Assembly (NCBI GenBank): GCA_027460535.1
Contig: JAPZAR010000029.1
Location: 33,735 to 65,734 of the forward strand
DNA from: Candidatus Methanoperedens sp.
Lineage (GTDB): Archaea; Halobacteriota; Methanosarcinia; Methanosarcinales; Methanoperedenaceae
DNA: 32,000 nt
Direction of reading: 5' to 3'
Below the pieces are notes generated by a model that did not search any database, had not been told where the DNA came from, and saw only the letters and a list, made by a program, of their open reading frames with translations. The translations under genes and the position numbers were made by a program. Position 1 is the stretch's first letter. Each line of letters starts with the position of its first letter. Shown piece by piece: positions 5,952-29,994 of this stretch.

Positions 5952-6884
5952 TTAGAAGTTATGTATCTCTCTATGCTTTTTGAGGTAAGTTTTGTCTGGA
6001 ATGTATTTTATAGGCATTCTAATCTTCTTCCCATTTAAATCAGAAATAGCGGTTGCAAGTATACTACTCTTCGGCTTAAATGACTTTGTCACAATTACTT
6101 CATATTGATCAGAAATGGAGATTAACCCATTTTCGAAAGCGACATCATGGAGAACACAGAGACAAATACCGTTTGTAGGATATGACGCTATTTTTATATC
6201 CTTGCTTACTGGCACAACGTGGCAACCTCTCAAAAACTGCCCATCATCAACATCGCACATGGCACACTTACTTTGATAACACTCTAATAGTATATTACGA
6301 AAAGCCTGTTGAAAATTTCTGGTTTTAACCTTTCTCTCCGAAAATGTAGCACCCTTCCTTATACCTTCTTCATATTCCTGAATAATTTTGTCTTTTTTCA
6401 CGACGTTCCATATTCCTAGCCCTCGCACCTTTTGTTCTGTTAAGGGCATGACGGTTGACAACCAACCCTCTTGTTTATTGATTTTTTTTAGTTCTGTGCC
6501 CAGCCAGTTAACATGTAACGTGTGCTTATAGTCAACCGGTATAGGATTATAATAATATTCATCATCCACCTTACCAATCCCTGCAATTTCTTTTTGCCCT
6601 TTGTTAGCAATTATAATATCTCCCTTTTTAACATTTCTGAAGTCCAAAAGTTGTTGAGCATCTCGTGTTAGACGGGTTTTATAATTAGGGGCTGTGTAAT
6701 AAGTATAATACGTTCGTAGTCTATCTTTAATTTGGTCTAAACTTAATTCTGATAAATCGCCGACCTTGGACCAGCCCATTGCAATTTTTTTCTCTTCAAT
6801 GCAAATAGACCATTGCCTTTCCCAACCTCTGTGATCCCTTCCCCAATTCGACGGGGAGATTTTCAAATAGCGAATATCTTTCAT
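5952..6884 (-). CDS. PUA/EVE-like N-terminal domain fused to HNH nuclease; putative modification-dependent (type IV) restriction endonuclease
   Basis: The C-terminal CAMCDVDDGQFLRGCHVVPVS...NGICLCVLHDVAFENGLISI fits the HNH_2-type pattern (CxxC...H..P...N..L....H..F..G). The N-terminal YLKISPSNW...IAMGWSKVGDLS...VKKGDIIIANKGQKEIAGIGKV resembles EVE/McrB-N-like reader modules. The gene is very AT-rich (19 of 60 G+C in the line starting at 6001). Confidence 0.6.
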   Translation of the reverse strand: MKDIRYLKISPSNWGRDHRGWERQWSICIEEKKIAMGWSKVGDLSELSLDQIKDRLRTYYTYYTAPNYKTRLTRDAQQLLDFRNVKKGDIIIANKGQKEIAGIGKVDDEYYYNPIPVDYKHTLHVNWLGTELKKINKQEGWLSTVMPLTEQKVRGLGIWNVVKKDKIIQEYEEGIRKGATFSERKVKTRNFQQAFRNILLECYQSKCAMCDVDDGQFLRGCHVVPVSKDIKIASYPTNGICLCVLHDVAFENGLISISDQYEVIVTKSFKPKSSILATAISDLNGKKIRMPIKYIPDKTYLKKHREIHNF

Positions 6885-7083
6885 TTTAAACCCGCAATTA
6901 TTTGGAACCTCACTAATAAAAGTCTATTGAAACATAAATCTTATCACAATAGGATTTTCAGGTATTTTTGGGATTCCTCTATCGAGATTTACATAAAATC
7001 CCTATAGATACCGAAAAAAATTCGCTATGCAACCCATCCTTAGTGTAATTTTTACGACCAATTTTGACAATCTACTAATCACC

Positions 7084-7440
7084 CTCACGCAAAATTCAGA
7101 CGAGCGCCCATTGGCCCGGCGCGCCCGATGAATCGGGTGTGGTTGGGCGACCCTGCGAACTGCGCAGAGTCGTGGGGTATGTTTCCACGTTTGAAATTGT
7201 TCACGAAAAAAGGATGCCCGAAACCTCAGAGATACTCCGCTCACGCAAAAGAATATCCGCAGGGTGCCTCAGGTAAAGGAACTTGCGCCCTTTGTGGTGA
7301 TTGTCGATACCCACATGAACTGTGTTCACAAATCCAATGAAAAAGATAGAACACAGATTCCACGGATAACACGGATTGGCACGGATTAAAGATATCCGTG
7401 AATATCCGTCGAATCCGTGTCATCCGTGTTCCCTGCCTCA
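7084..7440. repeat. GC-rich non-coding island with CTCACGCAAAA direct repeats and a phased inverted array of CACGGAT/ATCCGTG heptamers
   Basis: CTCACGCAAAA occurs at 7084-7094 and 7240-7250. CAC(A/G)GAT starts at 7352, 7361, 7370 and 7380. ATCCGT(G/C) starts at 7394, 7404, 7413 and 7422, symmetric about ~7390. Track ORFs here are overlapping, Arg/Cys/Pro-rich and look non-coding. Confidence 0.65.
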
Positions 7441-7546
7441 TTGGCAGCACTTTTTCATAGCAGAAGTAAGCAAAAAATAAATAATCTACCAGCCCGTAAC
7501 GGTATCGGTTTTTACAGGATTCTAATCAACTATACCCTGCAATTCA

Positions 7547-7899: not shown

Positions 7900-8247
7900 T
7901 TACATTACCATCAATTTACCTGCAATTACACCGCCACCGCACAGGATCAGGCTCAACAATATGTTAGCAGCAAAAATCCGGGACTCACCACGTTCAAGCA
8001 GCCGGAAGCTCTCATAGCTGAATGTTGAAAACGTTGTAAATCCTCCAAGTATGCCTGCATCTGCAAAATATGGCAGCGGGTTTGAGCCGTACGTTATTAT
8101 GGAAAGCAGGGCGGAACCTGTAAAATTCACGAGCAGGGTTCCCGTGGGCAGGTCTTTCCAGACCGGGAATATTCCGGAAACAATATACCTGAGAATAGCT
8201 CCAAGCGCGCCTCCTGCCCCAACAAGAAGGATAAGTGCAATGTTCAT
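7900..8247 (-). CDS. crcB: fluoride ion channel CrcB/Fluc, subunit 2
   Basis: I take the start at the internal Met (MNIALILLVGAGGALGAILRY), codon 51 of track ORF 7900..8397. GGFTTFSTFSYE signature. Its ATG overlaps the stop of the upstream crcB (ATGA at 8244-8247). Confidence 0.85.
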   Translation of the reverse strand: MNIALILLVGAGGALGAILRYIVSGIFPVWKDLPTGTLLVNFTGSALLSIITYGSNPLPYFADAGILGGFTTFSTFSYESFRLLERGESRIFAANILLSLILCGGGVIAGKLMVM

Positions 8248-8600
8248 GTTCCCAGCCCCTTCATTGCCATGGCTCGTCCGGCAAAAACCGCGAAAAGGCA
8301 GGCAATTATATTTGCAGATATATTCCATGCAGCAGGTGCTGCGGAATATTGAAGTGTCTGCAGCATGAAAGTCGAAAATGTTGTTAAGCCCCCGCAAAAA
8401 CCTATCCCGGCAAGGTATCTTTCCCTCTCGCTGAAAAAACCAAGTTCAGTTCCGTACATCAGGTAACCAAGGATGAAACTTCCGAGGACATTGACAATTA
8501 AGGTACCCCCCACTCCCTGAAAATACTGGAAAATAAGTTCCCTCAAAGCAGAACCCAAAAACCCACCAATGATGATGTAAGAAAATCTCGTTTTTTCCAT
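8244..8600 (-). CDS. crcB: fluoride ion channel CrcB/Fluc, subunit 1
   Basis: 118 aa, 4 TM helices, GFCGGLTTFSTF signature. Confidence 0.88.
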   Translation of the reverse strand: MEKTRFSYIIIGGFLGSALRELIFQYFQGVGGTLIVNVLGSFILGYLMYGTELGFFSERERYLAGIGFCGGLTTFSTFMLQTLQYSAAPAAWNISANIIACLFAVFAGRAMAMKGLGT

Positions 8601-8685
8601 TTTTTCGCTTGTTTATATTTTAAATAAATAATTTCCATTGTGTCTGCCACCTTACGGAATGGAGCAGAATCGTATTGTTTTATAA

Positions 8686-8772
8686 CGGGCGCGGAGGGAA
8701 TTGAACCCCCGACCTACAGCTTGCTCCTTAGAAATTAGGAGGCTGCCGCCATATCCTCTAGGCCACGCGCCC
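8686..8772 (-). tRNA. tRNA-Arg (anticodon CCU) with a ~14-nt intron at the canonical 37/38 position
   Basis: Hand fold of the reverse complement: acceptor GGGCGCG/CGCGCCC, D arm GCC..GGC, anticodon stem GCAGC/GCUGU, loop CUCCUAA, T arm GGGGG-UUCAAUU-CCCUC, discriminator G. The intron (~8722-8735) contains AGGAG complementary to the CUCCU anticodon region. Mature length is 73 nt. Confidence 0.85.
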
Positions 8773-8865
8773 TCTGGTTCGCTCCTAAATATCAGTGTGT
8801 TATCTTTAACTTATCGCCTTTATGAAAGAAAGGGTTAAGTATATTTGTGCTTATTCAAAGGCAAT

Positions 8866-8976
8866 CCCGCCTTAACTCAGTGGCTAGAGTGCGCGGCTGT
8901 AGTATGGTTCATGTGCATATGCACACAATACCGCGCAGGCACCGCGAAGTCCCCGGTTCGAGTCTGGGAGGCGGGA
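8866..8976 (+). tRNA. tRNA-Tyr (anticodon GUA) with a 38-nt intron at 37/38
   Basis: Acceptor CCCGCCU/AGGCGGG with a C1-G72 pair and A73 (archaeal/eukaryal tRNA-Tyr identity). D arm ACUC-AGUGGCUA-GAGU, anticodon stem CGCGG/CCGCG, loop CUGUAG..A, variable loop AAGUC, T arm CCCGG-UUCGAGU-CUGGG. Intron 8903-8940. A TATA-like AAGTATATTT lies ~24 nt upstream (8838-8846). Confidence 0.85.
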
Positions 8977-8987
8977 TTTTATTTTTT
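8977..8987 (+). terminator. oligo-T archaeal-type terminator after tRNA-Tyr
   Basis: TTTTATTTTTT immediately follows the discriminator base. Confidence 0.5.
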
Positions 8988-9044
8988 ATAATAATATTAA
9001 CAAATAAGTGAATTATTTAAAGCCAAAGCGCAAATAAGCCCATT

Positions 9045-9956
9045 ATGCTGCGAGTGACTTTTCTCGGGACAGGAGGCACCCTGCCTACGCCGAACCGCAA
9101 CCCTTCTGCCATACTTGTCAACAGGGAAGGAGATATGATGCTTTTTGACTGCGGCGAGGGCACGCAGCAGCAGATGATGCGAGGCAAAGTGGGCATGAAG
9201 ATAAATTCCATCTTCATTACTCATTTCCATGCCGACCATTTTCTCGGGATCCCGGGACTAATACAGACCATGTCTTTTAACGGAAGGACTGAACCGCTTG
9301 AAATATACGGGCCGGAGTGGACCAAGCAGATGGTACATCTCCTCATGGAGCTGGGTTACTACAAGCTCGGTTTTCCCATAAACGCGCATGAACTGGAAAA
9401 TGGGTCTACGATTGATAAAGGAGAATATTTTATAAAGGCTGTTGCCACAGATCATGGCATTCCCAGCCTTGGCTATGTGCTTGAGGAAAAAAAACGTATC
9501 GGCAGGTTTAACAAGGAAAAAGCTATCGAACTCGGGGTTCCGGTGGGGCATCTTTTTTCAAAGCTCCAGAATGGGGAGTCTGTCATGATAAATGGCAGAA
9601 AAATCTTGCCCTCCCAGGTATTAGGGAAAAGCCGTCCCGGCCGAAAACTGGTTTACAGCGGGGACACGCGGCCCTGTGGATCAATTGCCCGGGAAAGCTT
9701 GGGAGCGGACCTTCTTATCCACGACGGGACGCTTGCCGATGAGCTGAAGGAGTGGGCTCTTGAAACAAAACATTCGACATCGGGGGAAGCCGCAGCTCTT
9801 GCGAAAAAAGCAAAAGTAAAGCAATTGATATTGACACATGTCAGTTCCAGGTACTCGGAAAATGTAGAGATGCTATACCGTGATGCAAAGAGCGTATTTG
9901 AAAATGTCAAAATCGCAGAAGAATTCATGGAAATAGAAATACCTCTCAGTGAATAA
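9045..9956 (+). CDS. rnz: ribonuclease Z (tRNA 3' endonuclease)
   Basis: LRVTFLGTGGTLPTPNRNPSAILV, metallo-beta-lactamase HxHxDH motif (THFHADH), 303 aa. Confidence 0.9.
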   Translation: MLRVTFLGTGGTLPTPNRNPSAILVNREGDMMLFDCGEGTQQQMMRGKVGMKINSIFITHFHADHFLGIPGLIQTMSFNGRTEPLEIYGPEWTKQMVHLLMELGYYKLGFPINAHELENGSTIDKGEYFIKAVATDHGIPSLGYVLEEKKRIGRFNKEKAIELGVPVGHLFSKLQNGESVMINGRKILPSQVLGKSRPGRKLVYSGDTRPCGSIARESLGADLLIHDGTLADELKEWALETKHSTSGEAAALAKKAKVKQLILTHVSSRYSENVEMLYRDAKSVFENVKIAEEFMEIEIPLSE

Positions 9957-9992
9957 ATAAACATTAAATACACGCAGGTATATACCTCATAG

Positions 9993-10340
9993 GTGATGGT
10001 ATTGAACGCTTCTTTGTTGAAATTCAAACTGGACATTGAAAGAATAGGGCACATAATTGACCTGGATGAGTTCAAAATAAAAGAAGCCAGCGAACAAGGA
10101 AAGAGCACACTGATCTCTTCGAAATTCTTTAATAAAGGGGTTTACAGGGTGCGCAATACAAAGAACGGGCGCCTTGAGACTATTGCTGTGAATATTGATA
10201 AAATAGCGGCTGTCACATACGAAGGGCTCAAAAAAGAATTGGGGGAGGGCTGCGTTGACAAACTCCTCTGGAAGGATGTCCCTGAGGGCGAACCCATATT
10301 TTTCTATTCGCTTAAGCTTGAGAACGATTTTGTAAAATAA
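9993..10340 (+). CDS. hypothetical protein
   Basis: ORF with coding-like composition fills the rnz-deoA gap. I recognised no motif. The start could be the ATG at 9996. Confidence 0.45.
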   Translation: MMVLNASLLKFKLDIERIGHIIDLDEFKIKEASEQGKSTLISSKFFNKGVYRVRNTKNGRLETIAVNIDKIAAVTYEGLKKELGEGCVDKLLWKDVPEGEPIFFYSLKLENDFVK

Positions 10341-10343
10341 ACT

Positions 10344-11861
10344 CTAAAAGACCTTCGTTGCCTGGACTCTCTCTAAAAGCATGCCTTCCACAATTATGGG
10401 GAAGTCCGTCTCCGCACTCTTTAATGCATTTGTTAGTTTCCAGCTCTTGTCAGCGAAAATCGTTATCAGGGGTTCACCTTTCTTAACGATCTCACCTTTT
10501 TTCTTATGGATCCACACCCCCGACCCTCTGTCAATGGGGGCTCCCGCAATCCTCGCTATCTCCACGATTCTTTTATTGTCGAATTCAATAACATAACCTT
10601 CTGCCGGGGATGCAAGCTCAGCCCTATGTTCACCCGGTTTTATATCGGCATATGTTATTTTAGGATTTCCACCCTGTGCCTCTATGATTTCCCTTAATTT
10701 GCCCAGAGCCTTGCCTGAACGAAGTGTTTCCATCGCTATATCCTTACCGTGCCCTTTGGCCGCTGCTCCGCCCATTTCAAGCAAGATGCCGGCAAGTGCC
10801 GTACTCTTTTCAATAAGGCTGTTAGGCCCCTGCATTGTTTCCAGTACTTTGAGAGCCTCCCTGACCTCGATTGCCGGACCGACCGTCCTTCCGACCGGTG
10901 AGGCGCCGTAGGTCATGGCGCATTCCACACTCATCCCGAGCCTTTCTCCCAGTTCGATCAAGTCCCTTGCCAGTTTTTTTCCCTCCTGAATCGTGGGAAC
11001 TTTTGTCCCGCTGCCGATGGGTATATCGATGACGACACAGTCTGCGCCAACTGCCCCCTTTTTCGCCATTATGGACGCAAGAAGCTGGTTATGGGGGTCT
11101 ATCCCGAGTGGATATTCAGCATGTATCAGCTTGTCATCAGCCGGAGCTATATTTGTAGCGCCACCCCATGCGATCACGCCTCCTACCTTCTCTGTAATGG
11201 ATTTTATTTCCTCGGCCCCGAATTCTACTGGTGCAAGCACTTCCATAAGGTCAGCTGTGCCTGCCGCGCCGGTAATGGCCCGTGAGCTTGTCTTGGGTAT
11301 CAGGAGACCGTTCGCAGCTATTATGGGTACGACCAGCAGCGATATTTTATTCCCAGGTACACCCCCGATGCTGTGCTTGTCCACAATGGGATGGGTATCG
11401 AATTCGATCTTCTCGCCCGTATCGATCATTGCCCTTGTGAGCCATTCGACCTCATCCGAGCTCATTCCGTGGATGTATGAAGAGGTAACGAATGCAGACA
11501 ACTCTATTTCCGTAAGGTTATCCCTGACAATATCCTGGACGATCTGGTATATCTCTTCCTGCGTCAGCTTCTGGTGATCCATATATTTTTTAATGAAGCC
11601 GACGGAGCTGGGTCTTGAAGTGGGTATGATATCTACTGTAAGTGGGCATATCTTTCCAAGTTTCTCGCAACATTCCTGGTATACCCCTAGGTTACCTCTT
11701 TGAATCATATCGCCTGTTTCAACGATCGCAGTGATATAACTATGATCTTTTAATTGAACTCGGTCGCCGCCGCGAACCCCCAGTTCCTTAGCATCTTCGG
11801 TATTTAGGACAACCTTGAATTTTCCTGCCTTTATTTGAAGTGGTTGGACTTTTAATTCCAT
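10344..11861 (-). CDS. deoA: AMP phosphorylase (thymidine-phosphorylase family, archaeal long form)
   Basis: 505 aa. The N-terminal extension MELKVQPLQIKAGKFKVVLNTEDAKELGV is characteristic of archaeal AMP phosphorylase. It is followed by the glycosyl-transferase family 3 core (HSIGGVPGNK, TSSRAITGAAGTAD). Confidence 0.85.
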   Translation of the reverse strand: MELKVQPLQIKAGKFKVVLNTEDAKELGVRGGDRVQLKDHSYITAIVETGDMIQRGNLGVYQECCEKLGKICPLTVDIIPTSRPSSVGFIKKYMDHQKLTQEEIYQIVQDIVRDNLTEIELSAFVTSSYIHGMSSDEVEWLTRAMIDTGEKIEFDTHPIVDKHSIGGVPGNKISLLVVPIIAANGLLIPKTSSRAITGAAGTADLMEVLAPVEFGAEEIKSITEKVGGVIAWGGATNIAPADDKLIHAEYPLGIDPHNQLLASIMAKKGAVGADCVVIDIPIGSGTKVPTIQEGKKLARDLIELGERLGMSVECAMTYGASPVGRTVGPAIEVREALKVLETMQGPNSLIEKSTALAGILLEMGGAAAKGHGKDIAMETLRSGKALGKLREIIEAQGGNPKITYADIKPGEHRAELASPAEGYVIEFDNKRIVEIARIAGAPIDRGSGVWIHKKKGEIVKKGEPLITIFADKSWKLTNALKSAETDFPIIVEGMLLERVQATKVF

Positions 11862-15391: not shown

Positions 15392-16300
15392 ATGAGCTGG
15401 AGAAACAATATTGAACTATTAAGATTGTGCAACTCTCCAGCTTCTATAATTTCACCTTTCCCTATTTTTGCAATTTCCCTTTTTCTAATATCTCGCAGAG
15501 AGTTCAATATTCACGATTTACCCATTCTATTTGCCGGAATAGTTATCTCACTTTTTTCGAACTTTGGTTCTAACTTATGGAACCATTGCAATGATATAAA
15601 AGAGGATTTGGCACAAGGCAAGAAAACGATTTTAACACAGGATAGATCAATGCAAAAAACAGCACTGTTTATCGCTGTCATGCTCTACGCATTCTCTATA
15701 CTCTTTGTTTATTATTTATCAATCGAACTTAAAAAGCCAATTTACTTGTTTTTTTTAATTTGGGCTTTTGCAACCTGGTGGTATTCGGATAATCTAATTC
15801 TTAAAAAAATTATTGGTTTTAGACTAAAAGAGCATTATATAGGTGAGTTTATCACCTATGGCGTTGCATGGCCCACGTATACATTGAGCATCTGGCTTGT
15901 ATATTCTGATTTAAATGCCAAAGGAGTATTGACATCTGCGGCATTCTTTTTACTTAGCATATCAGCGCTACTGTTAAAGGATTTAAAAGACATAACAGGA
16001 GATAGGAAAGCTGGTTTAAAAACTTTTGGAGTAACATTCTCCCCTTCTCGACTAATACGATACTCCTCTTACATGATGTTGTTATTTTATTTTATCTTAC
16101 TGAATCCACTTTCTTTAAATCTTTTTGGTATCGGTATTTTGGTCATGATCTTTCCATTCGTTTATTTTTTTAAAAATACCTTTGCCCACATGTATAAAAA
16201 AAACTGGGTTTTAGAGCTAGAAGATATGAAAGCACTGAAATGCATAGGCAAATCTATCTATGCATCGGTGATATTTATAGGGCTGAGCGCTTTTCATTAA
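15392..16300 (+). CDS. UbiA-superfamily intramembrane prenyltransferase (divergent)
   Basis: About 8-9 TM helices. First Asp-rich motif NHCNDIKED (NxxxDxxxD) and second motif DLKDITGD (DxxDxxxD) followed by RKAGLKTF. It does not resemble DGGGP synthase around the first motif. Confidence 0.8.
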   Translation: MSWRNNIELLRLCNSPASIISPFPIFAISLFLISRREFNIHDLPILFAGIVISLFSNFGSNLWNHCNDIKEDLAQGKKTILTQDRSMQKTALFIAVMLYAFSILFVYYLSIELKKPIYLFFLIWAFATWWYSDNLILKKIIGFRLKEHYIGEFITYGVAWPTYTLSIWLVYSDLNAKGVLTSAAFFLLSISALLLKDLKDITGDRKAGLKTFGVTFSPSRLIRYSSYMMLLFYFILLNPLSLNLFGIGILVMIFPFVYFFKNTFAHMYKKNWVLELEDMKALKCIGKSIYASVIFIGLSAFH

Positions 16301-17670
16301 ATTTCCAAACAGGTATTTGTACCAGCATTTGTAAAAAAAATATTATCATTCGCTTCTGATAAATAATTTCTTAACTGGAATTCAGGTGGAATATACGCTG
16401 AAGGAGGGTAAGATAAAATTCCAAAATAATTTTTACCTAATAGTTTTTTCACTTTATCTTTATATTCAAAAGTTTTCTCTCCGAATGTGGTTGCAACTCC
16501 TACATCAATGCAGAAATAAATAAAACTACCATTATTATATTTCAAATTATTTAAACTTGAGATGAATGCATCAAATTTATCATTCACCATTTCATAAACT
16601 AGGGCAACCTTTTCTGAATAATCTGAAACATCCATAATTAGAGGGAACAGGTCGAATGGTAAAAAGTTGCCCATACCAATAACAAACGCTCCCTTTGTTT
16701 TTTTATTGAAAAAAAACAACCCATACGGTATGAAGATTTTATAGTCTCCTTTGTCAAGATTCCCTAAAATTTCTTTCTCTTTTTTATCAAATACATGTAT
16801 CAGATTCTTTACTGCTTCGGGGGAGGGTATGCCATCCAGCGATATTAAAATATTTTTTTCAAAGTTTGCTTTAAATTCCTTTATAACTTTAAAGTTATTA
16901 TTGATTATGCATCTTGTTTCATCAAGAGTTTTACCTTTATCAGGAAAGATCTCATCATATACAGCATTTATATTCTCTTTCTCGATTGTGAGTGCAGCAA
17001 TGCCTTCTTCTATATCCCTGAAGTTACAGAAAATGCTGGGAGAATTAAACCTCAGTTGTGTATGCAATACGTTAATTCCTATAATCGGCACTTTATAATC
17101 GGTACTTTGTGCAAAAATATCAAGTACAGTCGGAGGTGGGTAGATAAATTTCTCTTTATCGCAGTAATCTGCGAATTTTCCCGCATATTCTTTTTGTTTT
17201 TCCGGATTCGCTCTTTTGCATAATGTACTGTAATATAATCCTCTCGCACAAATTTGACTGACCTTAAACGCACTTGCCATATGTGCTAATGGAAAATGTA
17301 ATATAACAACCCCTTTCTTGCAATCTATTTTTTTGGCGAGTTTTTTCGCAGATTCTATTGCACCATTTTCATTCGCTCCTTGAACTCTTATCTTTGCGTC
17401 AGGGTCAGTGCATAGTACCAGCGCGGCACCATCCATTCTTAAATCATCTGGAAATATCATTCCATCCACAGAAGCGCCTATCTGTGGTATATCGCCATAC
17501 TCTTCATGGAATATATCCAGCATGGACTGATATTTGCCGCCATACTTTAACGTGGCATAGAATAAAGCAAGGTCAGGTTTAAAATCCAGATGCAAATGAG
17601 CTTGCTCTAAAATATCCAGTGCAGCCTGCTTATGGTCTTTTTTATTACTGAAAAGCGTAAGAGATCTCAT
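16297..17670 (-). CDS. stand-alone FIST-domain protein (FIST_N + FIST_C-like)
   Basis: The N-terminal KPDLALFYATLKYGG...IPQIGASVDGMIFPDD...DGAALVLC fits the FIST_N pattern. No recognisable output domain. Stop codons of this gene and the UbiA gene share TTAA at 16297-16300. Confidence 0.6.
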   Translation of the reverse strand: MRSLTLFSNKKDHKQAALDILEQAHLHLDFKPDLALFYATLKYGGKYQSMLDIFHEEYGDIPQIGASVDGMIFPDDLRMDGAALVLCTDPDAKIRVQGANENGAIESAKKLAKKIDCKKGVVILHFPLAHMASAFKVSQICARGLYYSTLCKRANPEKQKEYAGKFADYCDKEKFIYPPPTVLDIFAQSTDYKVPIIGINVLHTQLRFNSPSIFCNFRDIEEGIAALTIEKENINAVYDEIFPDKGKTLDETRCIINNNFKVIKEFKANFEKNILISLDGIPSPEAVKNLIHVFDKKEKEILGNLDKGDYKIFIPYGLFFFNKKTKGAFVIGMGNFLPFDLFPLIMDVSDYSEKVALVYEMVNDKFDAFISSLNNLKYNNGSFIYFCIDVGVATTFGEKTFEYKDKVKKLLGKNYFGILSYPPSAYIPPEFQLRNYLSEANDNIFFTNAGTNTCLEI

Positions 17671-17944
17671 TTCACCTTTTGTATTTTTGTCTCCGGGGCG
17701 TTTTTACTTTCCATTATATCCAGAATTTCAATTAGTTTGTTTGGGAATATATATTTTTCCGCTATATTATTAAGATGCAGTGTTCTTAATATTTTAACCT
17801 TCTCACCAGGTTTAAAGGGAGAATGCCTAGGTCAACTTGATAAACATTCTATGAGGATGCAAAGGCAGAACTATATCTATTTTGGAGATTAATTTTAATC
17901 CGATACAGGTATCCATCGATTATTAATCCGAGGGAGGAAAAATT

Positions 17945-19510
17945 ATGAGCTTGGAAAAAAGTCAGGTCAGAGAGGCTATTAGAAAAAGTCAGGCTTTTCT
18001 GCTTAAAGGCGTAGAGAACCATTTGATATTAAATGGGAGAAGACAGCAAGAATTCCTAATAAATCCATGCCCATTAGCCACAGCCCTTGCAATTCTAGCA
18101 TCCGAGAGAAATTGTGAACCAGTAAAAAACGCAATCACCTGGCTTCGGAAAATACAGAATAAGGATGGCGGATGGGGTTTTGCGGATAGCGTGCCCAGCG
18201 ATATTAATAGCACTGCTCTATGCATTCTGGCTCTGGAAGAGACTGAAAGACAGATAGAAAAAAGAGCCCGCATTTTCATGAAAGAAAATGGTGGTTTCTC
18301 AAAAACAGAATGGTTTGTTCAAGTGATTTCAAGTTTATTTGACAAATACTCCCCGGATGAGATTCGTACTCCAGGTGTTGGTGCCTCAAGATTGCCTCTT
18401 CCGGAACTGCGATTTACACCTTCATTTTATGCTAATCTGAATCCTACTGCGAAAAATATGGTTTTTAGCCTTACCGCGCTGGAAATGTTGGCTAAAAAGG
18501 AAAATGCTAACAAAACACTGGGATTTTTAGAAAGTGTTCAGGGACTGGATGGTTCTTGGGATCAAGAGGTTATACTTACTTCTTTCGCAACATTGGCGTT
18601 TCAAAAAGCTAAAATAAATCCCAGAATAAATCCGAATCATTGGTTTTCCGAGGTGCAATATTCAGATGGTGCTTGGCCAGCTTTCAACCAATTAGCTTGT
18701 TGGGATATAGGTTGGGCCAGTTCTATTCTTGCTGGAAAATTTTTGCGGGATGAAAGACTACAAAGAGCGAAAAAGTATCTTGAAGATGGAATGTATTTGG
18801 ACGGAAGTTTTGGGTTCACATTGCCACATGCAGGGCCGGATATTGATGACACTGCAGTGGCTTTAATAGGGCTTAAAAATCTCTGTTCAGAGAAAACTCT
18901 ACAGACATCTCGATATTTAAAATTTATGCAGAATGCAGATGGAAGCTGGAGCACATTCCCGGAGTTCTTTGGCAGTCCCCCGTATTGCATTTCAGGAAAA
19001 GTTGTTCATTTACCAAGTGTGGATGTAACGTGTCATGTTTTAAAAGCCTTATACGACGAACCATTAACAAATAAAGAACCTTTCATAGAGTCGGCTCTCG
19101 ACTGGTTAGTCTCAGCTCAGAACAAAGATGGCTCATGGGAATCGACATGGTTCAGGGGTAATATCTACGCGACTTCTGAGGCTATAACCACTTTGCATAA
19201 ATTTGGCATTGAGGGAGAAACTATATCCAGAGGTTTAGAATGGGTTGGTGGTCAACAGCGCTCTGATGGGAGTTTTGGCAATGGCACCGTACCAGAAACG
19301 TCATTAGCGTTAACAGCATTCATGGCATGCCTTTTTGAAAAAGTGGATGTTGATAAGGCAGTTCAATTCTTATTGGATGAACAAAACCCCGACGGATCTT
19401 TTTCAAGATCTTATACAGGAATCTATTTCGGTATTTATTATAATGACCCCATATATTTTACCTATTTGGGATTAAATGCGCTTGAACTATACAATAAAAT
19501 GGAAAAATAA
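17945..19510 (+). CDS. squalene-hopene-cyclase-family class II terpene cyclase (521 aa)
   Basis: Eight to nine [QM]xxDG[GS][WF] QW-type repeats (QNKDGGWGF, QGLDGSWDQ, QYSDGAWPA, MYLDGSFGF, QNADGSWST, QNKDGSWES, QRSDGSFGN, QNPDGSFSR). DIDDTA (aa 299-304, nt 18839-18856) matches the catalytic DxDDTA. Blocks are collinear with A. acidocaldarius SHC as I recall it (PDVDDTAVV / SEDVTAHVL / QKPDGSW). GAGGGAGG SD-like motif before the ATG. Confidence 0.8.
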   Translation: MSLEKSQVREAIRKSQAFLLKGVENHLILNGRRQQEFLINPCPLATALAILASERNCEPVKNAITWLRKIQNKDGGWGFADSVPSDINSTALCILALEETERQIEKRARIFMKENGGFSKTEWFVQVISSLFDKYSPDEIRTPGVGASRLPLPELRFTPSFYANLNPTAKNMVFSLTALEMLAKKENANKTLGFLESVQGLDGSWDQEVILTSFATLAFQKAKINPRINPNHWFSEVQYSDGAWPAFNQLACWDIGWASSILAGKFLRDERLQRAKKYLEDGMYLDGSFGFTLPHAGPDIDDTAVALIGLKNLCSEKTLQTSRYLKFMQNADGSWSTFPEFFGSPPYCISGKVVHLPSVDVTCHVLKALYDEPLTNKEPFIESALDWLVSAQNKDGSWESTWFRGNIYATSEAITTLHKFGIEGETISRGLEWVGGQQRSDGSFGNGTVPETSLALTAFMACLFEKVDVDKAVQFLLDEQNPDGSFSRSYTGIYFGIYYNDPIYFTYLGLNALELYNKMEK

Positions 19511-20366: not shown

Positions 20367-21452
20367 ATGGTGAAGAAAAGTGAGATGAAGAAAGAAGAAG
20401 GTCAAGAAAAAAAAGATGTTTTCAAAGTATGGGCCGACAGCTATACCGCTGTTTCAAAAATGTGGGAGGAATCCTACATGAACCTGTACAAGCCCTGGAT
20501 AGAAACCACGGGTGAAATGTTCGAAAAAGCAGTTGAGCTATCAAAGGAAGCCACGCCTGAGAAGTACAAAGAATTCTATGATGAATGGATAAAGGCACAG
20601 CAGAAGACGTTTGGGAAAATCTATCCTATCCCGATGCAGAAATCCGACCGGGAGACGCTTGAGAAACTTCTTGTAAGCGCGGAGGAAGCGAACAACCTCT
20701 TCAAATCCTGGGTCGCCGAGATAGAGGAGAACACGCAGAGAACGCAAGATTTGCTGAAAGGTACACCCGACCCCGAAAAGTACAGGGATCATTTTAATAT
20801 GTGGATGAAATCCTATGAAAAAATATTCGATGAGTTCATTTCCATGCCGGCTATGGAAAGCACGAAGGAAATATTCGGGAATTATGGCGGCATACCTAAT
20901 ATGTACTTAAAGAATTTTGCAGAGATGTCAAAAATATGGAAGAATTCGTTCTCTGACTTGTACTTGCCCTGGGTTGACCCCATGTTCAGGCTCTCCGGGA
21001 AGACGGCTGAGCTCTCAAGGGGAAACGCAACTCCTGAAGACTACAAGGAATTCTACAATCTTTGGATGAAAACATACCAGGAAACATATGGCAAGATGTT
21101 CAATGTCCAATCCATGAAGCCGTCAAAGGAAATGCTTGAAAATTTCCTCGAGAGCACCAATATCTATCTCAACATGTATAAAACGTGGATAGCTGCCATG
21201 GAAAAGATGTCGGAAAAGGTCAAAGACCTGTCGGGACGCACGTCCGATCCTGAAGCTTATAAGGAATTTTACGACCTCTGGGTAACGACATATGAGAAAG
21301 CTTTCGAAGACTTCTTCGAGAACATGCCCACTATTGGCCCTATGAAGAAGATGATGGAACCTGTAAAGAGCGCGGCCAAGATATACGCCGACACATTTGC
21401 GAACATGTCAAATATGTGGATCGAGTCTTTTCCCAGCACAGCCCGGGCCTGA
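20367..21452 (+). CDS. phasin-like protein built from four PhaE-N-terminal-type repeat modules
   Basis: The motif [TD]PE.Y[KR][ED][FH][YF]..W recurs at aa 63, 135, 222 and 294 (TPEKYKEFYDEW, DPEKYRDHFNMW, TPEDYKEFYNLW, DPEAYKEFYDLW) in an A-B-A'-B' arrangement. The same module (SPEAYRDFYRLW) occurs in the adjacent phaE. GGAGG SD before the ATG. Confidence 0.65.
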   Translation: MVKKSEMKKEEGQEKKDVFKVWADSYTAVSKMWEESYMNLYKPWIETTGEMFEKAVELSKEATPEKYKEFYDEWIKAQQKTFGKIYPIPMQKSDRETLEKLLVSAEEANNLFKSWVAEIEENTQRTQDLLKGTPDPEKYRDHFNMWMKSYEKIFDEFISMPAMESTKEIFGNYGGIPNMYLKNFAEMSKIWKNSFSDLYLPWVDPMFRLSGKTAELSRGNATPEDYKEFYNLWMKTYQETYGKMFNVQSMKPSKEMLENFLESTNIYLNMYKTWIAAMEKMSEKVKDLSGRTSDPEAYKEFYDLWVTTYEKAFEDFFENMPTIGPMKKMMEPVKSAAKIYADTFANMSNMWIESFPSTARA

Positions 21453-21454
21453 GT

Positions 21455-22015
21455 ATGGAAAGAACCTGTTTTGAATCCACCCACGAGTTTTTTGAGATGT
21501 GGTTAAAGACCTATGAAGCAACCTATGGCAGGCTCATAGAAATGCCTCCCATGGGCCCGATGCGCGAGAAATCAGAAAAAGTGATGAAGAATTTTTCGCT
21601 TTCAGTCAACCTTTACACGGCATGGATGGAATCCCTGGCCGATTTCCAGAGTGTTTTCATTGAAGCCATGCGCAGGATGCGCGAAAAGATGGCAGTGGAG
21701 GGGGAGGTCAGCCCTGAAGCATATAGGGATTTTTATAGGTTATGGATTGAAACTTACAGCGAGACGTTCAAAGAATTCTTGAAGTCAGGCCATTTTTCCT
21801 CGGGCATGGGCAGGCTCATGTCATATTCTATCGATTTCCAGAAAAATAACAGGGAAATGCTTGAGGAGAATTACATGAAAACATTGGGCCTTCCCACAAG
21901 GACCGAGATCGATGAGATAAACAGGGAAGTCTATTTTCTCAAGAAAAAGGTAAAGGAGCTGGCAGGAGCGTCAAGGAACTCGCAGGGGATGGGAGGACTC
22001 CATGAACAGTCTTGA
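21455..22015 (+). CDS. phaE: PHA synthase subunit PhaE (class III)
   Basis: I place the start at the Met of MERTCFEST (codon 14 of track ORF 21416..22015). It has the PhaE repeat module and a C-terminal GLPTRTEIDEINREVYFLKKKVKEL coiled-coil typical of PhaE. It overlaps the phaC start. Confidence 0.8.
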   Translation: MERTCFESTHEFFEMWLKTYEATYGRLIEMPPMGPMREKSEKVMKNFSLSVNLYTAWMESLADFQSVFIEAMRRMREKMAVEGEVSPEAYRDFYRLWIETYSETFKEFLKSGHFSSGMGRLMSYSIDFQKNNREMLEENYMKTLGLPTRTEIDEINREVYFLKKKVKELAGASRNSQGMGGLHEQS

Positions 22016-23186
22016 TTTCATAGAGAGGCAGATAAAATTCGTAAGAGGGATGGAAATACTGCTGGAACCTCCCGAAATTACAGTTGGGACTACCCCTTCG
22101 GAGGTCGTCTATGCAGAAGACGACATGAAGCTTCTGCATTACATTCCAACATCAGAAAAATCGTATCCGATTCCGGTGTTGATAGTATATGCATTTGTTA
22201 ACAGGTATTACATCCTGGATCTCCAGCCCGATAAGAGCGTGATAAAAAAGCTGCTGAATGAGGGCCTCGATGTCTACATCATTGATTGGGGATACCCTTC
22301 GGGGGCAGACATGTACCTGACCCTTGATGATTACGTTAACGGCTATATAAATAATGCAGTGGACAAAGTCAGGGAAATATCGGGAACGGAAAAGATCACA
22401 CTGCTCGGGGTGTGCCAGGGGGGAACGCTTTCCGTGATGTACGCCTCACTTTATCCTGAAAAAGTGAAGAACCTTGTTGCCCTTGTGACACCGGTGAATT
22501 TCGATACGGATAAAGGACTTCTCCATATCTGGGCAAAAAGCCTGGATGTTGACAAGATGGTTGACTACTATGGGATAGTACCAGGGGATCTGCTGAATGT
22601 TGGATTCCTGCTCACGGATCCTTTCAGGCTTATGATAGACAAGTATGTGGGATTATTCGAGAGGATCGAAGGCGAGCCTGATAATGCGGGTTATCTCAGG
22701 AATGAGGAGACGGTCAAGACCTTCCTGCGGATGGAGAAATGGATATTTGACAGCCCAGACCAGGCAGGCGAAGCTTTTCGGCAGTTCATGAAGGACTGCT
22801 ACCAGAACAACCTTCTCATCAAGAATGAGATGAAGCTAGACGGGAAGAAGATCGACCTGAAAAAAATAACGATGCCCCTATTAAATGTTATGGCGGAGAC
22901 GGATCATCTTGTTCCCAACGCTGCGAGCATTCCGCTTAACGATGCGGTTGCGAGCGAAGATAAGGAGACACTCATTTTCCCGACGGGGCATATCGGTATC
23001 TTTGTTGGTTCCAAATCGCAGAAAGAGGTTTGTCCGAAGATTGCGGAGTGGCTGAAGCCGAGATCTTTACCGGAAGAGATGAAAGAGCGATCGGAAGAGC
23101 AAAGAGAGCAAGCTGGAGTGGAAAAACCCGGACAACCGGTAGTGCGTAAAAGAAGAGGTCGTAAGGCGAGGAGAAGCGTAAAATGA
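22002..23186 (+). CDS. phaC: PHA synthase catalytic subunit PhaC (class III) with a basic C-terminal tail
   Basis: Lipase-box-like GVCQGG with the catalytic Cys. Alpha/beta-hydrolase core with PLLNVMAETDHLVP and GHIGIFVG. About 355-aa core plus a ~40-aa Lys/Arg-rich tail (VVRKRRGRKARRSVK). Confidence 0.9.
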   Translation: MNSLDFIERQIKFVRGMEILLEPPEITVGTTPSEVVYAEDDMKLLHYIPTSEKSYPIPVLIVYAFVNRYYILDLQPDKSVIKKLLNEGLDVYIIDWGYPSGADMYLTLDDYVNGYINNAVDKVREISGTEKITLLGVCQGGTLSVMYASLYPEKVKNLVALVTPVNFDTDKGLLHIWAKSLDVDKMVDYYGIVPGDLLNVGFLLTDPFRLMIDKYVGLFERIEGEPDNAGYLRNEETVKTFLRMEKWIFDSPDQAGEAFRQFMKDCYQNNLLIKNEMKLDGKKIDLKKITMPLLNVMAETDHLVPNAASIPLNDAVASEDKETLIFPTGHIGIFVGSKSQKEVCPKIAEWLKPRSLPEEMKERSEEQREQAGVEKPGQPVVRKRRGRKARRSVK

Positions 23187-23923
23187 GACTCGATAACAAA
23201 GTTGCAATTATTACAGGTGGAGGGAGCGGTATTGGCAGGGAAACTGCAATGCTGTTCGCCGAGGAGGGTGCAAAGGTGGCAATAACTGGAAGGACGGATG
23301 AGAGAATAAAGAAAGTCTGCGAAGAGATAAGCGAAAAAGGTGGAAAATCAATCTATGTCCGGGGGGATGTTTCAATAAAGGAAGACATGGATGAAGTCGT
23401 CAATAAGACTATCAATGAATTTGGGCGGATTGATATCCTGATAAACAACGCAGGGATCAATCAGGATGCTTTAGTAACTAAAATGACCAGGGAACAGTGG
23501 AATGGTGTCATTAACATCGATCTTTCCGGCGCTTTCAATTGCATCCAGGCAGTGGTCGATGTAATGATCAACCAGGGTAGTGGTGTGATTATCAATGCGT
23601 CATCAATTTCAGGCATATATGGTAATATCGGACAGGTAAATTACGCTTCGGCAAAGGCTGGGCTAATAGGTTTGACCAAGACCCTTGCAAAGGAACTCGG
23701 TAAAAAAGGCATCCGTGTCAATGCGGTCGCTCCGGGATTCACAGTTACACCCATGACTTCGAAAGTACCTGAAAAAATTATGAATATAATGATAGAGAAG
23801 ACCCCTCTTCGCAGGCTGGCAGAGCCACGGGATATTGCCTACGCATACCTTTATCTCGCTTCGGATGAGGCGAGGTTCGTTAACGGGGCAGTGCTCTCGG
23901 TCGACGGGGGATTGACCATCTGA
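23183..23923 (+). CDS. short-chain dehydrogenase/reductase, FabG/PhaB-type (candidate acetoacetyl-CoA reductase)
   Basis: TGGGSGIGR cofactor motif, NNAG, catalytic S...YxxxK (YASAKAG). 246 aa. ATGA overlap with phaC. Confidence 0.8.
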   Translation: MRLDNKVAIITGGGSGIGRETAMLFAEEGAKVAITGRTDERIKKVCEEISEKGGKSIYVRGDVSIKEDMDEVVNKTINEFGRIDILINNAGINQDALVTKMTREQWNGVINIDLSGAFNCIQAVVDVMINQGSGVIINASSISGIYGNIGQVNYASAKAGLIGLTKTLAKELGKKGIRVNAVAPGFTVTPMTSKVPEKIMNIMIEKTPLRRLAEPRDIAYAYLYLASDEARFVNGAVLSVDGGLTI

Positions 23924-23948
23924 GATTTAAAACAAGTGGGAGAATTAA

Positions 23949-25127
23949 ATGAACAAAGCAGTGATTGTTTCGGCAACGAGGACCGCGATAGGGAAATTTG
24001 GCGGGAGTCTTAAGGATTTCACGCCCGGACAACTTGGTTCCGTGGTGCTGAAAGATGCGCTGAAAAGGGCGCAGGTTGAACCTGACGAGGTTGATGAAGT
24101 TATCATGGGAAATGTTCTTTCAGGGGGCCATGGCATGAATATTGCCAGGCAATCCTCGATATGGGCAGGGCTGCCGGAAAAGGTACCTTCCTGCTGCGTG
24201 AACAAAGTTTGCGGCTCTGGATTGAAATCGGTTATCTTTGGTGCCCAGGCAATCATGCTGGGCGATGAGGATATCATACTCACCGGAGGAACGGAATCCA
24301 TGTCGGCATCCATGTATGCCCTTAAAAAAGCACGCTGGGGGATCAAGATGGGCAATGATGAGACAATTGACACGATGATAAGTGACGGGCTCTGGGATAT
24401 TTTCAATAATGTCCACATGGGGATTACGGCAGAAAATGTGGCTGAGAAATATCACATCAGGCGGGAAGACCAGGACGAATTCTCAGCAAAAAGCCAGAAT
24501 AAATCAGAATCTGCCATAAAAGCCGGGAGGTTCAAGGATGAAATAGTTCCTGTAGAAGTCCCGCAGCCAAAAGGCGACCCTCTTCTTTTTGATACGGATG
24601 AGTTCCCGAGATTCGGAACAACAAAAGAAGTACTATCCAGGTTGAAACCGGCATTCAAAAAAGATGGCACAGTGACGGCAGGGAATGCGTCCGGGATCAA
24701 TGACGGGGCTGCATCGGTCCTTCTCATGTCGGAAGAAAAGGCCCGGGATAAGGGCCTGGAGCCGCTTGCAACCATCATTGGCTACGCGTTCTGCGCAATA
24801 CCTCCGGAAATAATGGGAATGGGACCGGTTTGCGCAACCAGGAAAGTCCTTGAGCGCGCGGATCTGAAACTGGATGATATTGATCTTATAGAAGTGAATG
24901 AAGCATTTGCAGCCCAGTCGGTTGCCGTCAGCAAAGAATTGGGATGGGATATGGACAGGGTAAATGTTAACGGGGGCGCCATAGCCCTCGGGCATCCAAT
25001 AGGTGCGAGCGGAGCCAGGATACTGGTCACATTGATCCATGAATTGATAAGAAGAGATAGCACTTACGGACTTGCCACACTCTGTATCGGGGGTGGGCAG
25101 GGTATTGCAGTAGTAATTGGGAGGTAG
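23949..25127 (+). CDS. phaA: acetyl-CoA acetyltransferase (bacterial-type thiolase II)
   Basis: VNKVCGSGLKS (active-site Cys), NASGINDGAA, NVNGGAIALGHPIGASGAR, CIGGGQG. 392 aa. Confidence 0.9.
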   Translation: MNKAVIVSATRTAIGKFGGSLKDFTPGQLGSVVLKDALKRAQVEPDEVDEVIMGNVLSGGHGMNIARQSSIWAGLPEKVPSCCVNKVCGSGLKSVIFGAQAIMLGDEDIILTGGTESMSASMYALKKARWGIKMGNDETIDTMISDGLWDIFNNVHMGITAENVAEKYHIRREDQDEFSAKSQNKSESAIKAGRFKDEIVPVEVPQPKGDPLLFDTDEFPRFGTTKEVLSRLKPAFKKDGTVTAGNASGINDGAASVLLMSEEKARDKGLEPLATIIGYAFCAIPPEIMGMGPVCATRKVLERADLKLDDIDLIEVNEAFAAQSVAVSKELGWDMDRVNVNGGAIALGHPIGASGARILVTLIHELIRRDSTYGLATLCIGGGQGIAVVIGR

Positions 25128-25133
25128 ATAGAA

Positions 25134-25994
25134 ATGGAAAACAATAGGAATGGAGCGCGTCTGAAAGGCAAAGTAGCCCTGGTAACCGGGGGCTCAAGAG
25201 GTATTGGCATGGCGATAGCAATGAGGATGGCGGAGGAAGGCGCGGATGTTGCCATAAATTACCAGAATACCAGAGAGCATGCAGAGAACGTATCTAAACT
25301 GGTAGACCACATAGGCACGATCGATGAAATCGGGAAATTATCGGTGATAATAGATCGTATGGATACCAAGGAGCACGCAAAGGAGGCATCGAAACTGGTG
25401 GAATCAATGGGCTGCCACTCATGTATCGTTCAGGCGAACGTGAGCGATATCGAGCAGGTGAACAAAATGAAAGACGAGGTGCTCAAAAAATTCGGCAAAA
25501 TAGATATTCTGGTCAATAACGCAGGAATCACCAGGGATAAATCGTTCGTCAAAATGACCCCGGAAATGTGGTCAGAAGTAATATCTGTGAACCTGAATGG
25601 GGCGTTCAACTGCACCAAAGCCGTAATAGACGATATGCTGGAACGAAAATACGGGCGCATAATCAATATCTCCTCTGTCATAGGGAGGATGGGCAATTTC
25701 GGACAGGCGAACTATGCAGCATCGAAAGCGGGAATGATCGGCCTTACACAGACGCTTGCAAAAGAATTCGCAGGTAAAGGCATAACGGTCAATGCGATAG
25801 CACCAGGATTCATTGAAACCGATATGGTGAGATCTGTCCCGAAAGAAGCGATGGAAAAAATCCTGGCAAAAATACCCCTCGGCAGACTGGGAAAGCCTGC
25901 AGAGGTCGCCGCAGCCGTGGCCTATCTTGTTTCCCCTGAAGGTGAATACATAACAGGTCAGGTTTTAGATATAAATGGGGGACTTTACATATAA
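25134..25994 (+). CDS. second FabG/PhaB-type SDR carrying a 32-aa in-frame tandem duplication
   Basis: TGGSRGIGMA, NNAG, YAASKAG. Extra segment NTREHAENVSKLVDHIG...DTKEHAKEASKLVESMG (nt 25266-25316 vs 25362-25412). Confidence 0.8.
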   Translation: MENNRNGARLKGKVALVTGGSRGIGMAIAMRMAEEGADVAINYQNTREHAENVSKLVDHIGTIDEIGKLSVIIDRMDTKEHAKEASKLVESMGCHSCIVQANVSDIEQVNKMKDEVLKKFGKIDILVNNAGITRDKSFVKMTPEMWSEVISVNLNGAFNCTKAVIDDMLERKYGRIINISSVIGRMGNFGQANYAASKAGMIGLTQTLAKEFAGKGITVNAIAPGFIETDMVRSVPKEAMEKILAKIPLGRLGKPAEVAAAVAYLVSPEGEYITGQVLDINGGLYI

Positions 25995-28812: not shown

Positions 28813-28923
28813 CGCATGCCATGAGTGGTATCCGCAAATAAGATGTATCGTTGATTATGCCGCTAATGTAATACTTATATATATACTCCCAGAGTGTATC
28901 TATTATATTCGTATAGGGACCCT

Positions 28924-29994
28924 ATGAAGGAGAACAAGGAAAAGAACCATAAGAACAAATGGATGCAGCTTCCGAGAAATGTTGTTGTCGGCCATGGTGT
29001 GATCAACGACACTGGTAAGGTGTGTCAAGATCTTAAGCTTAATGGGAGTGCCCTTGTCGTTGCGGGCGGCTCCACCTTCAAAGCTGCTGGAAAAACGGTT
29101 GAAGTCTCACTCGAAGACTCTGGTTTTAATGTGAATGAGGCGATCATAAAAAGCCCCTCACTTGAAGAGGTCATCAAAGTCGAAAAGATATCAACGGAGG
29201 TGAAGGCCTCTTTCTTGCTTGGCGTCGGCGGCGGGAAATCCATAGATATCGCCAAGCTTGCGTCGAAGCACCTTGACCTTCCTTTCATTAGCGTTCCCAC
29301 TGCGGCATCCCATGATGGAATTGTATCCTCGCGAGCCTCGATCATGCGGGATAATATAACAGTTTCAGAAGAGGCACAGACCCCCATAGCCGTTGTTGCA
29401 GACACTGCAATAATATCTGCAGCGCCGTACCGCCTCCTCGCGGCCGGATGCGGGGATATAATATCTAATTACACTGCTGTTCGGGACTGGGAACTTGCGC
29501 ACAGACTGCGCGATGAACCTTATAGCGAATATGCCTCCATAATCTCCAAGATGACCGCAAAAATACTCATCGAATCTGCCGAAGCCATCAAACCCGGCAT
29601 AGAGGAGTCTGCATGGACTGTTGTGAAAGCGCTGGTGGCAAGCGGCGTGGCCATGAGCATCGCGGGTTCTTCCCGTCCTGCGAGCGGTTCCGAACACAAG
29701 TTCAGCCATGCATTGGACGAGATCGCACCGCATCCTGCCCTTCACGGCGAACAATGCGGCGTGGGCACAATTATAATGATGTACCTTCACGGTGGCAACT
29801 GGCAGGAAATACGCACTGCTCTTAAAACAATTGGAGCGCCTGTAAATGCTTCCGAACTGGGAATAGGGGAAGAATATATTATCGAAGCGCTCGTTAATGC
29901 GCACGGGATACGTCCTGAAAGGTATACCATCCTTGGAACGGGACTGACCCGGGAAGCTGCGGAGAAGGCTGCAAAAATTACAAAAGTTATCTAA
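28924..29994 (+). CDS. egsA: NAD(P)-dependent glycerol-1-phosphate dehydrogenase
   Basis: I place the start at the ATG of [58 protein letters not shown] and LHGEQCG are G1PDH/iron-ADH superfamily blocks. This is an archaeal lipid hallmark enzyme. Confidence 0.9.

Follow-up and report, generated by a model that had tools for sequence, protein, structure and literature searches.

A compact, SHC-related class II cyclase gene of Candidatus Methanoperedens with an intact DxDD motif and a putative head-to-tail polyprenyl substrate

We have analysed a 32,000-nucleotide stretch of Candidatus Methanoperedens sp. DNA (contig JAPZAR010000029.1; hereafter the window), which carries a gene for a 521-aa protein related to squalene-hopene cyclase (SHC). 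The protein, referred to below as the cyclase, is an exact database match to NCBI "hypothetical protein O8C66_15805" of Candidatus Methanoperedens sp. Our preferred reading, to which we assign a probability of roughly 0.55, is that it is a working class II cyclase of an uncharacterised Methanoperedens/Desulfitobacteriia clade that would act on a head-to-tail polyprenyl chain, probably C20, and not on squalene. The gene and its catalytic motif are located as follows.

17945..19510, plus strand: cyclase gene, 521 aa, ATG start, from the open reading frame (ORF) listing
18839..18856, plus strand: DxDD(TA) general-acid motif, D299-I-D301-D302-T-A, codons 299-304
18845..18847, plus strand: D301, counterpart of the proton donor D376 of SHC

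The motif had been reported at codons 299-304 in the first-pass annotation of the window, and the window letters (gat att gat gac act gca) and the ORF translation agree on it. Residues D299-A304 sit within the translated block YLDGSFGFTLPHAGPDIDDTAVALIGL of the cyclase. The likeness of this block to the PDVDDTAVV block of SHC, also proposed there, was recovered by two kinds of alignment. A phmmer search against the PDB paired PDIDDTAVA of the cyclase with P373-DVDDTAVV of the Alicyclobacillus acidocaldarius SHC (1gsz, 631 aa, E 3.3e-21), with DIDDTA matching D374-A379 residue for residue. The same register was obtained by profile-profile alignment (hhalign) against 17 SHC sequences (probability 99.9, E 3.5e-35, 458 columns). 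We have then examined conservation in 44 aligned family sequences, 30-75% identical to the window cyclase. P298, D299, D301, D302 and T303 were unchanged in 44/44, and retention across members this divergent indicated a conserved motif and not a chance DxDD. The Pfam domains SQHop_cyclase_C (2.6e-33) and SQHop_cyclase_N (4.9e-20) were both detected, together with eight QW-like repeats, and no transmembrane segment was predicted in the cyclase (maximum 19-residue hydropathy of 1.13). The Pfam matches, the alignments and the conservation thus upheld the assignment to the class II cyclases with an SHC-homologous general-acid motif.

The residues that accompany the catalytic acid in SHC were located in the cyclase through the same alignments.

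18701..18703, plus strand: W253, equivalent to SHC W312, the aromatic residue beside the acid, by profile and HH alignments
19022..19036, plus strand: D360-V-T-C-H364, counterpart of SHC D447...H451, aligned to SHC "DVTAHVLE"
19148..19168, plus strand: W402...Y408, equivalent to SHC W489 (cavity aromatic) and Y495 (acid-network Tyr)
18566..18568, plus strand: E208, at the cavity-lining position I261 of SHC, by the HH alignment register

In SHC, D447 and H451 form the Asp/His pair that supports the catalytic Asp. Their counterparts D360 and H364 were invariant among the 44 members, as was W402, and position 408 was nearly so (Tyr/Phe in 98%). W253, Y494 and Y499 were also invariant, among many Trp and Tyr residues, and F338 aligned with SHC Y420. 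Since the SHC counterparts of the acid-support residues are conserved, the acid and an SHC-type support network (H364, D360, Y408, W253 and W402) appear intact at the sequence level, and the cyclase is very probably an active enzyme in which D301 would protonate a terminal alkene. Position 208 was acidic (D or E) in 44/44 members, and positions 208 and 451 both carry invariant acids. From its place in the alignment, E208 may be a terminating base or a ligand of a head group or Mg2+.

We have built an AlphaFold2 model with the 44 homologues. The model (pLDDT 86.7, pTM 0.89; residues ~100-160 poorly defined) is a confident prediction of a beta-gamma class II cyclase with a double alpha/alpha-barrel. 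The top Foldseek matches in the PDB were exclusively class II cyclases, with E values of ~1e-16 for SsDMS (the drimenyl diphosphate synthase of Streptomyces showdoensis), SHC and oxidosqualene cyclase (OSC), and of 1e-13 to 1e-11 for the diterpene cyclases. The TM-scores were 0.68/0.73 for SsDMS, which ranked first by target-length TM, and 0.70/0.60 for SHC; among the diterpene cyclases they were 0.63 for Rv3377c, 0.60 for the ent-copalyl diphosphate synthase (ent-CPS) PtmT2 and 0.60 for Tpn2. When the family profile was scored against the solved structures, the order was SHC (113 bits), SsDMS (72), OSC (54), ent-CPS (49), Tpn2 (48) and Rv3377c (44). SsDMS (PDB 7XQ4, 7XR7 and 8ZG0) resembles the cyclase in being a beta-gamma protein, and the family profile is colinear with it over 300 positions that include the DxDD; the two proteins share only 17-18% identity.

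With SHC as the best-scoring solved relative, the cyclase could be a compact squalene cyclase. An archaeon would then have acquired a membrane lipid enzyme of the hopanoid type, which makes hopene-like or other polycyclic triterpenes. The SHC of A. acidocaldarius (PDB 1GSZ, 2SQC and 3SQC; TIGR01507) is a beta-gamma homologue that is colinear over the 458 hhalign columns, with DxDDTA in the same register and QW repeats; the eight repeats of the cyclase are likewise as in triterpene cyclases. Its H451, D447, Y495, W312, W489 and Y420 correspond to H364, D360, Y408, W253, W402 and F338, so that the two proteins share the acid network and several of the aromatic residues in the cavity. On the other hand, the cyclase fell far under all curated NCBIfam cut-offs, with 118.7 bits against the 431.1 of TIGR01507 (hopene_cyclase) and 114.7 against the 322.7 of TIGR01787 (squalene_cyclas). 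By the equivalog threshold, missed by a wide margin, the sequence is not classed as an SHC. Identity to SHCs is ~24%, no higher than to other clades, and the cavity position of I261 carries a carboxylate. In addition, the cyclase is ~110 aa shorter (521 vs 631 aa), as the first-pass annotation had noted. hhalign left a ~48-aa SHC segment unmatched between cyclase residues 183 and 184 (from the "WAR" helix to the next QW repeat), and the deficit arises because this segment is missing and several SHC loops are shortened, the rest being colinear. We take the missing segment to overlap the monotopic membrane-anchor region of SHC. Finally, the host is an archaeon, and a squalene synthase gene (SQS/HpnCDE) was found neither in the window nor in the neighbourhood of any annotated related locus, while genes for an isoprenyl diphosphate synthase (IDS) and a UbiA prenyltransferase recur there (see below). 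We therefore consider a squalene substrate improbable, and the annotation of family members as "squalene cyclase" is probably mistaken.

The first-pass annotation had compared the length of the cyclase with that of class II diterpene cyclases acting on geranylgeranyl diphosphate (GGPP), such as copalyl- and halimadienyl-diphosphate synthases, and had taken GGPP as a plausible substrate on that ground. The size class itself held, the matched beta-gamma cyclases having 514 aa (SsDMS), 501 aa (Rv3377c) and 523 aa (PtmT2). As an indicator of substrate the length did not, for the deficit corresponds to one SHC segment without a counterpart and to shortened loops in an otherwise SHC-like chain. A kinship with these enzymes was not borne out: both sequence (44-49 vs 72-113 bits) and fold (TM 0.60-0.63 vs 0.68-0.70) place the cyclase nearer SHC and SsDMS than the diterpene cyclases, which argues that it is not a member of the copalyl/halimadienyl-diphosphate synthase clade of GGPP cyclases.

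A conventional cyclase of that type, converting GGPP to a bicyclic diphosphate for a second enzyme, has nevertheless several points on its side. The known class II diterpene cyclases (PtmT2, 5BP8; Rv3377c, 6VPT; Tpn2, 7XKX; and the Asgard halimadienyl-diphosphate synthases) are beta-gamma proteins of ~500-520 aa in which a shielding Trp and a supporting His, H341 in Rv3377c, accompany the acid motif. Archaea have GGPP in abundance and it is available in the present host, and class II diterpene cyclases making halimadienyl diphosphate occur in Asgard and other archaea (bioRxiv 10.1101/2025.02.07.637177). Moreover, the operon of a close orthologue, described below, includes a C20-type IDS and a UbiA that could take a cyclised diphosphate as donor. 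Against this, neither a class I synthase nor an Rv3378c-like partner was found in the window or related loci, and Methanoperedens is unmentioned in the published archaeal diterpenoid cyclase set (bioRxiv 10.1101/2025.02.07.637177). The basic residues may also speak against such an enzyme. In the 44-member alignment the only conserved basic positions were R107, K170, K419 and R429, which map to superfamily-wide (SHC R171) or QW-helix positions, and none was a family-specific Lys or Arg for a diphosphate. SsDMS holds the diphosphate of farnesyl diphosphate (FPP) through R132, K133, E169 (gamma domain), R501 and two Mg2+ (PMC12232559). When these ligands were mapped onto the cyclase, its N-terminal half aligned only to internal repeats and no equivalents were identified. 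We regard the conventional diterpene cyclase as an unlikely explanation.

The gene contexts of relatives were the most informative with regard to a substrate. In Methanoperedens nitroreducens Mnv1, an orthologue 72% identical to the window cyclase (locus L008, NZ_FZMP01000010.1, 1188..11810) lies in a tight same-strand operon with the order polyprenyl synthetase (IDS), UbiA, radical-SAM/SPASM (AhbD/NirJ-like), cyclase, two further radical-SAM/SPASM genes, ABC ATPase, ABC-2 permease and a 362-aa protein. Three variants of the operon exist: L096 matches L008 exactly, L097 is without the second and third radical-SAM genes, and L094/L095 lacks the IDS and is preceded by a PadR regulator. IDS and operon-type UbiA thus stand beside the cyclase in L008, L096 and L097, and the UbiA without IDS in L094. 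The Chloroflexota relatives also show this linkage: nine retain an IDS-cyclase-UbiA arrangement with a UbiA of the same subfamily (31-33% identity). One further relative lies amid four P450 genes, genes of the methylerythritol phosphate (MEP) pathway, UbiA and IDS. Firmicute members often adjoin an ABC ATPase and an ABC-2 permease, some within 5 kb of an IDS, as illustrated by a Gracilibacteraceae locus with the order methyltransferase-cyclase-ABC-ABC2-IDS. Firmicute synteny with GNAT, histidine kinase and TPR genes was kept only among close relatives and was judged uninformative. As a separate observation, locus L094 (VEPD01000042.1) is an 8.6-kb contig binned as "Ruminiclostridium sp.", although it holds an operon of the Methanoperedens type, whose proteins share 86-95% identity with their Mnv1 counterparts; the contig is probably archaeal and was binned wrongly.

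Such IDS-UbiA-cyclase cassettes, shared by the cyclase orthologues and the Chloroflexota relatives, recall the meroterpenoid pathway of MstE (6SBB) and imply a head-to-tail polyprenyl substrate. The recurrent linkage to IDS and UbiA, the lack of a squalene synthase gene in these contexts and the missed SHC thresholds together favour such a chain over squalene. Concerning chain length, the Mnv1 IDS has a Phe at -5 of the first DDxxD motif (first aspartate-rich motif, FARM; HNFTLIHDD), which by the established chain-length rule for trans-IDS suggests a short-chain C15/C20 type. The operon UbiA scored best against models of the digeranylgeranylglyceryl phosphate (DGGGP) synthase type, under their cut-offs. 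The earlier suggestion that GGPP is a plausible substrate alongside squalene was therefore supported in part: GGPP gained indirect backing from the C15/C20-type IDS and the DGGGP-like UbiA, while squalene became less likely.

The same cassettes, a hallmark of meroterpenoid pathways, could instead point to a regular polyprenyl substrate of greater length (C25-C40), or to a quinone or another prenylated acceptor whose tail is cyclised, as with MstE, Lon15 and sporulenol synthase. The IDS genes beside the firmicute and Chloroflexota relatives are of the long-chain type, with small residues at -4/-5 of the FARM, and the Mnv1 IDS scored best against geranylfarnesyl-diphosphate synthase, under the cut-off (349.9 vs 560 bits). 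However, the Phe at -5 of the Mnv1 enzyme is of the short-chain type, its operon UbiA resembles DGGGP synthase and not the aromatic prenyltransferases, and the window copy has no partner genes. MstE itself is a beta-only protein with a DxD motif and a weak profile match (25 bits). We give a longer chain or a prenylated quinone-like acceptor low odds.

Several observations weigh against our preferred reading of the window cyclase. SHC tops the sequence similarity among solved structures. The lack of family-specific basic residues counts against a free prenyl diphosphate as substrate. The long-chain IDS type near the firmicute and Chloroflexota relatives means that chain length may differ across the clade. 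No IDS, operon-type UbiA, radical-SAM or exporter gene was found near the cyclase in the window, by a search that included tblastn. The Mnv1 operon UbiA has only three close homologues and no detectable one in the metagenome-assembled genome of the window, so that the transfer of function from the 72%-identical operon copy to the window copy is an assumption. Finally, we found no literature on this cyclase family or on terpenoid cyclases of Methanoperedens.

From the motif, the fold, the conservation, the purifying selection and the gene contexts we infer that the protein acts as a cyclase, and we extend the inference to its substrate and product, to the chain length and to the sequence of steps, along the following lines. 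D301, the middle Asp of D299-x-D301-D302, would protonate an isoprenoid chain at its terminal C=C, kept acidic by H364, D360 and Y408 as SHC D376 is by H451, D447 and Y495. The carbocation cascade would proceed where the beta and gamma domains meet, within a cavity lined by the aromatic residues W253, F338, W402, Y494 and Y499, until a base ends it, the family-wide carboxylate at position 208 being a candidate. A regular, all-trans head-to-tail polyprenyl chain is the likeliest substrate; in Methanoperedens it would probably be C20 geranylgeranyl, either as GGPP or after transfer by UbiA onto an acceptor. Because conserved basic residues are missing, we lean weakly towards the cyclase acting on the UbiA product, as MstE does, rather than on the diphosphate before transfer. 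The solo window copy would need to draw on a housekeeping pool, for which the GGPP of archaeal lipid synthesis is the obvious candidate.

The hosts of the cyclase family are strict anaerobes. Together with the intact DxDD, this would imply a start by alkene protonation and not by epoxide opening. These two points set the cyclase apart from the "SHC-like"/epoxy-polyprenyl cyclase clades of McShea et al. 2025. In the superfamily tree of that study (PMC12414744), some clades have no assigned function, and "a handful" of sequences from Clostridia and Chloroflexota fall close to the epoxy-polyprenyl cyclases.

We have then compared the cyclase locus of the window with orthologous loci. The features upstream of the gene are the following.

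15392..16300, plus strand: UbiA-family prenyltransferase (Pfam UbiA, 1.7e-18; no NCBIfam equivalog cut-off reached)
16297..17670, minus strand: FIST/AF0772_C-domain gene (Pfam FIST), a core Methanoperedens gene flanking the insertion point
17671..17944, no strand: intergenic region of 274 bp between the divergent FIST/AF0772_C gene and the cyclase, presumably holding the cyclase promoter

An archease gene and then a polyhydroxyalkanoate (PHA) operon follow 3' of the cyclase. Two loci lack the cyclase (L090, and L091 from Mnv1) and show the order HTH_45, UbiA, AF0772_C(-), AF0774(-), KaiC-like ATPase(-) and XseBA; the AF0772_C domain was found at the orthologous loci. In L001, L092 and L093 the cyclase is a one-gene insertion between AF0772_C and AF0774. 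In the window, too, the cyclase stands alone as an insertion among core genes. The UbiA gene of the window was considered as evidence of a shared pathway and rejected, being a core gene with the same FIST/AF0772_C neighbour in the cyclase-free loci L090 and L091. It forms >120 clusters at >=64% identity against ~8 for the cyclase and has no detectable relation to the Mnv1 operon UbiA; it is a core gene of the Methanoperedenaceae and no indicator of cyclase function. A transferred island in the low-GC 12-20 kb stretch was likewise rejected, the low GC (0.34) belonging to the core UbiA and FIST genes (15392..17670); the cyclase itself has a GC of 0.405 and the window of 0.436. No repeats or insertion sequence (IS) scars were found flanking the cyclase.

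A solo gene with so patchy a distribution might have arrived by transfer and now be decaying or encode a protein without catalytic activity, for instance a prenyl-binding protein, and the ~8 clusters against >120 for the adjacent core UbiA would agree with that. The ORF is, however, intact in all orthologues, the catalytic residues are all invariant, and dN/dS among the Methanoperedens orthologues is 0.13-0.25, resembling that of the flanking core genes. Since both the divergence of the cyclase (70-75% amino acid identity) and its dN/dS match those of the flanking core genes, the gene appears to have been retained vertically for long under purifying selection. A remnant is, in our judgement, very improbable.

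The close relatives (70-75% identity) form only about eight clusters, all Methanoperedens-like, and after this gap the next relatives are proteins of ~530 aa with 30-35% identity. When each GTDB species was scanned through a single genome, the family turned up in 2 Methanoperedens species and in ~45 Desulfitobacteriia/Peptococcaceae, among them Desulfosporosinus, Desulfitobacterium, Thermincola, Acididesulfobacillus, Paradesulfitobacterium, Dichloromethanomonas and Gracilibacteraceae. Relatives in Chloroflexota/Ktedonobacterales came next, at 25-27% identity. Mean identities were 24% to SHCs and 26% to the Chloroflexota relatives. A neighbour-joining tree with 200 bootstraps, computed from 506 columns of 55 sequences, recovered Methanoperedens as monophyletic (100%) and the Firmicutes as a clan (98.5%), and joined the two with 71.5% support. 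A recent transfer from the sampled Firmicutes was unsupported, with Methanoperedens as a sister and not nested. In sequence comparisons the clade appears distinct from every characterised group included, a set that left out Lon15, AtoE, Bra4 and PlaT2.

Other features of these loci were recorded. A conserved core module of FIST/AF0772_C, AF0774 and a KaiC/DnaB_C-like ATPase is represented in the window by 16297..17670 (-), in L001 by 4413..7478 and in L090 by 7906..10662. The cyclase is inserted inside this module; in L001 the AF0774/AF0772_C pair is duplicated, and in the window the archease gene takes the place of the missing AF0774 and ATPase genes. In L091 (Mnv1, FZMP01000224.1), a gene for an FAD-dependent oxidoreductase (9317..10513) adjoins the FIST gene at the position of the solo cyclase in others; its Pfam matches are Pyr_redox_2 and SE (squalene epoxidase family), with faint Lycopene_cycl and Trp_halogenase. 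The PHA operon of the window (20367..25994, plus strand) encodes two PhaE-like proteins (361 and 199 aa), PhaC (394 aa), a short-chain dehydrogenase/reductase (SDR), a thiolase and a second SDR. A glycerol-1-phosphate dehydrogenase gene (28894..29994, plus strand; NF002022, 544 bits vs a cut-off of 413), for the first committed step of archaeal lipids, lies 9 kb from the cyclase with no sign of linkage. The window further contains a tRNA gene in a sparsely coding stretch (8686..8772, minus strand; Rfam, 53.8 bits) and an ORF with an HNH endonuclease domain (5952..6884, minus strand).

Polycyclic triterpene cyclases were found absent from Archaea in a 2020 analysis (PMC7306690), and the archaeal class II cyclases reported only recently (bioRxiv 10.1101/2025.02.07.637177) belong to another clade and are diterpene cyclases. 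An SHC-related cyclase that is conserved and under selection, with an IDS/UbiA/radical-SAM/exporter operon, would extend cyclic-terpenoid biosynthesis to the anaerobic methanotrophs, archaea of biogeochemical importance. Of the new leads the Methanoperedens operon is the most useful; it provides a concrete gene set for seeking new anaerobic cyclic isoprenoids and possible sources of biomarkers. More speculatively, and as something of a long shot, some Methanoperedens and anaerobic Desulfitobacteriia might make polycyclic lipids by O2-independent cyclisation of regular polyprenyl chains. In the Mnv1-type operon, the DGGGP-synthase-like UbiA would then attach the chain, the radical-SAM enzymes would tailor the product and the exporter would ship it. 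If so, an archaeon would possess a membrane terpenoid resembling the hopanoids, and there would be a candidate biological source for sedimentary biomarkers that are still orphans and derive from regular polyprenols after cyclisation, the tricyclic terpanes for example.

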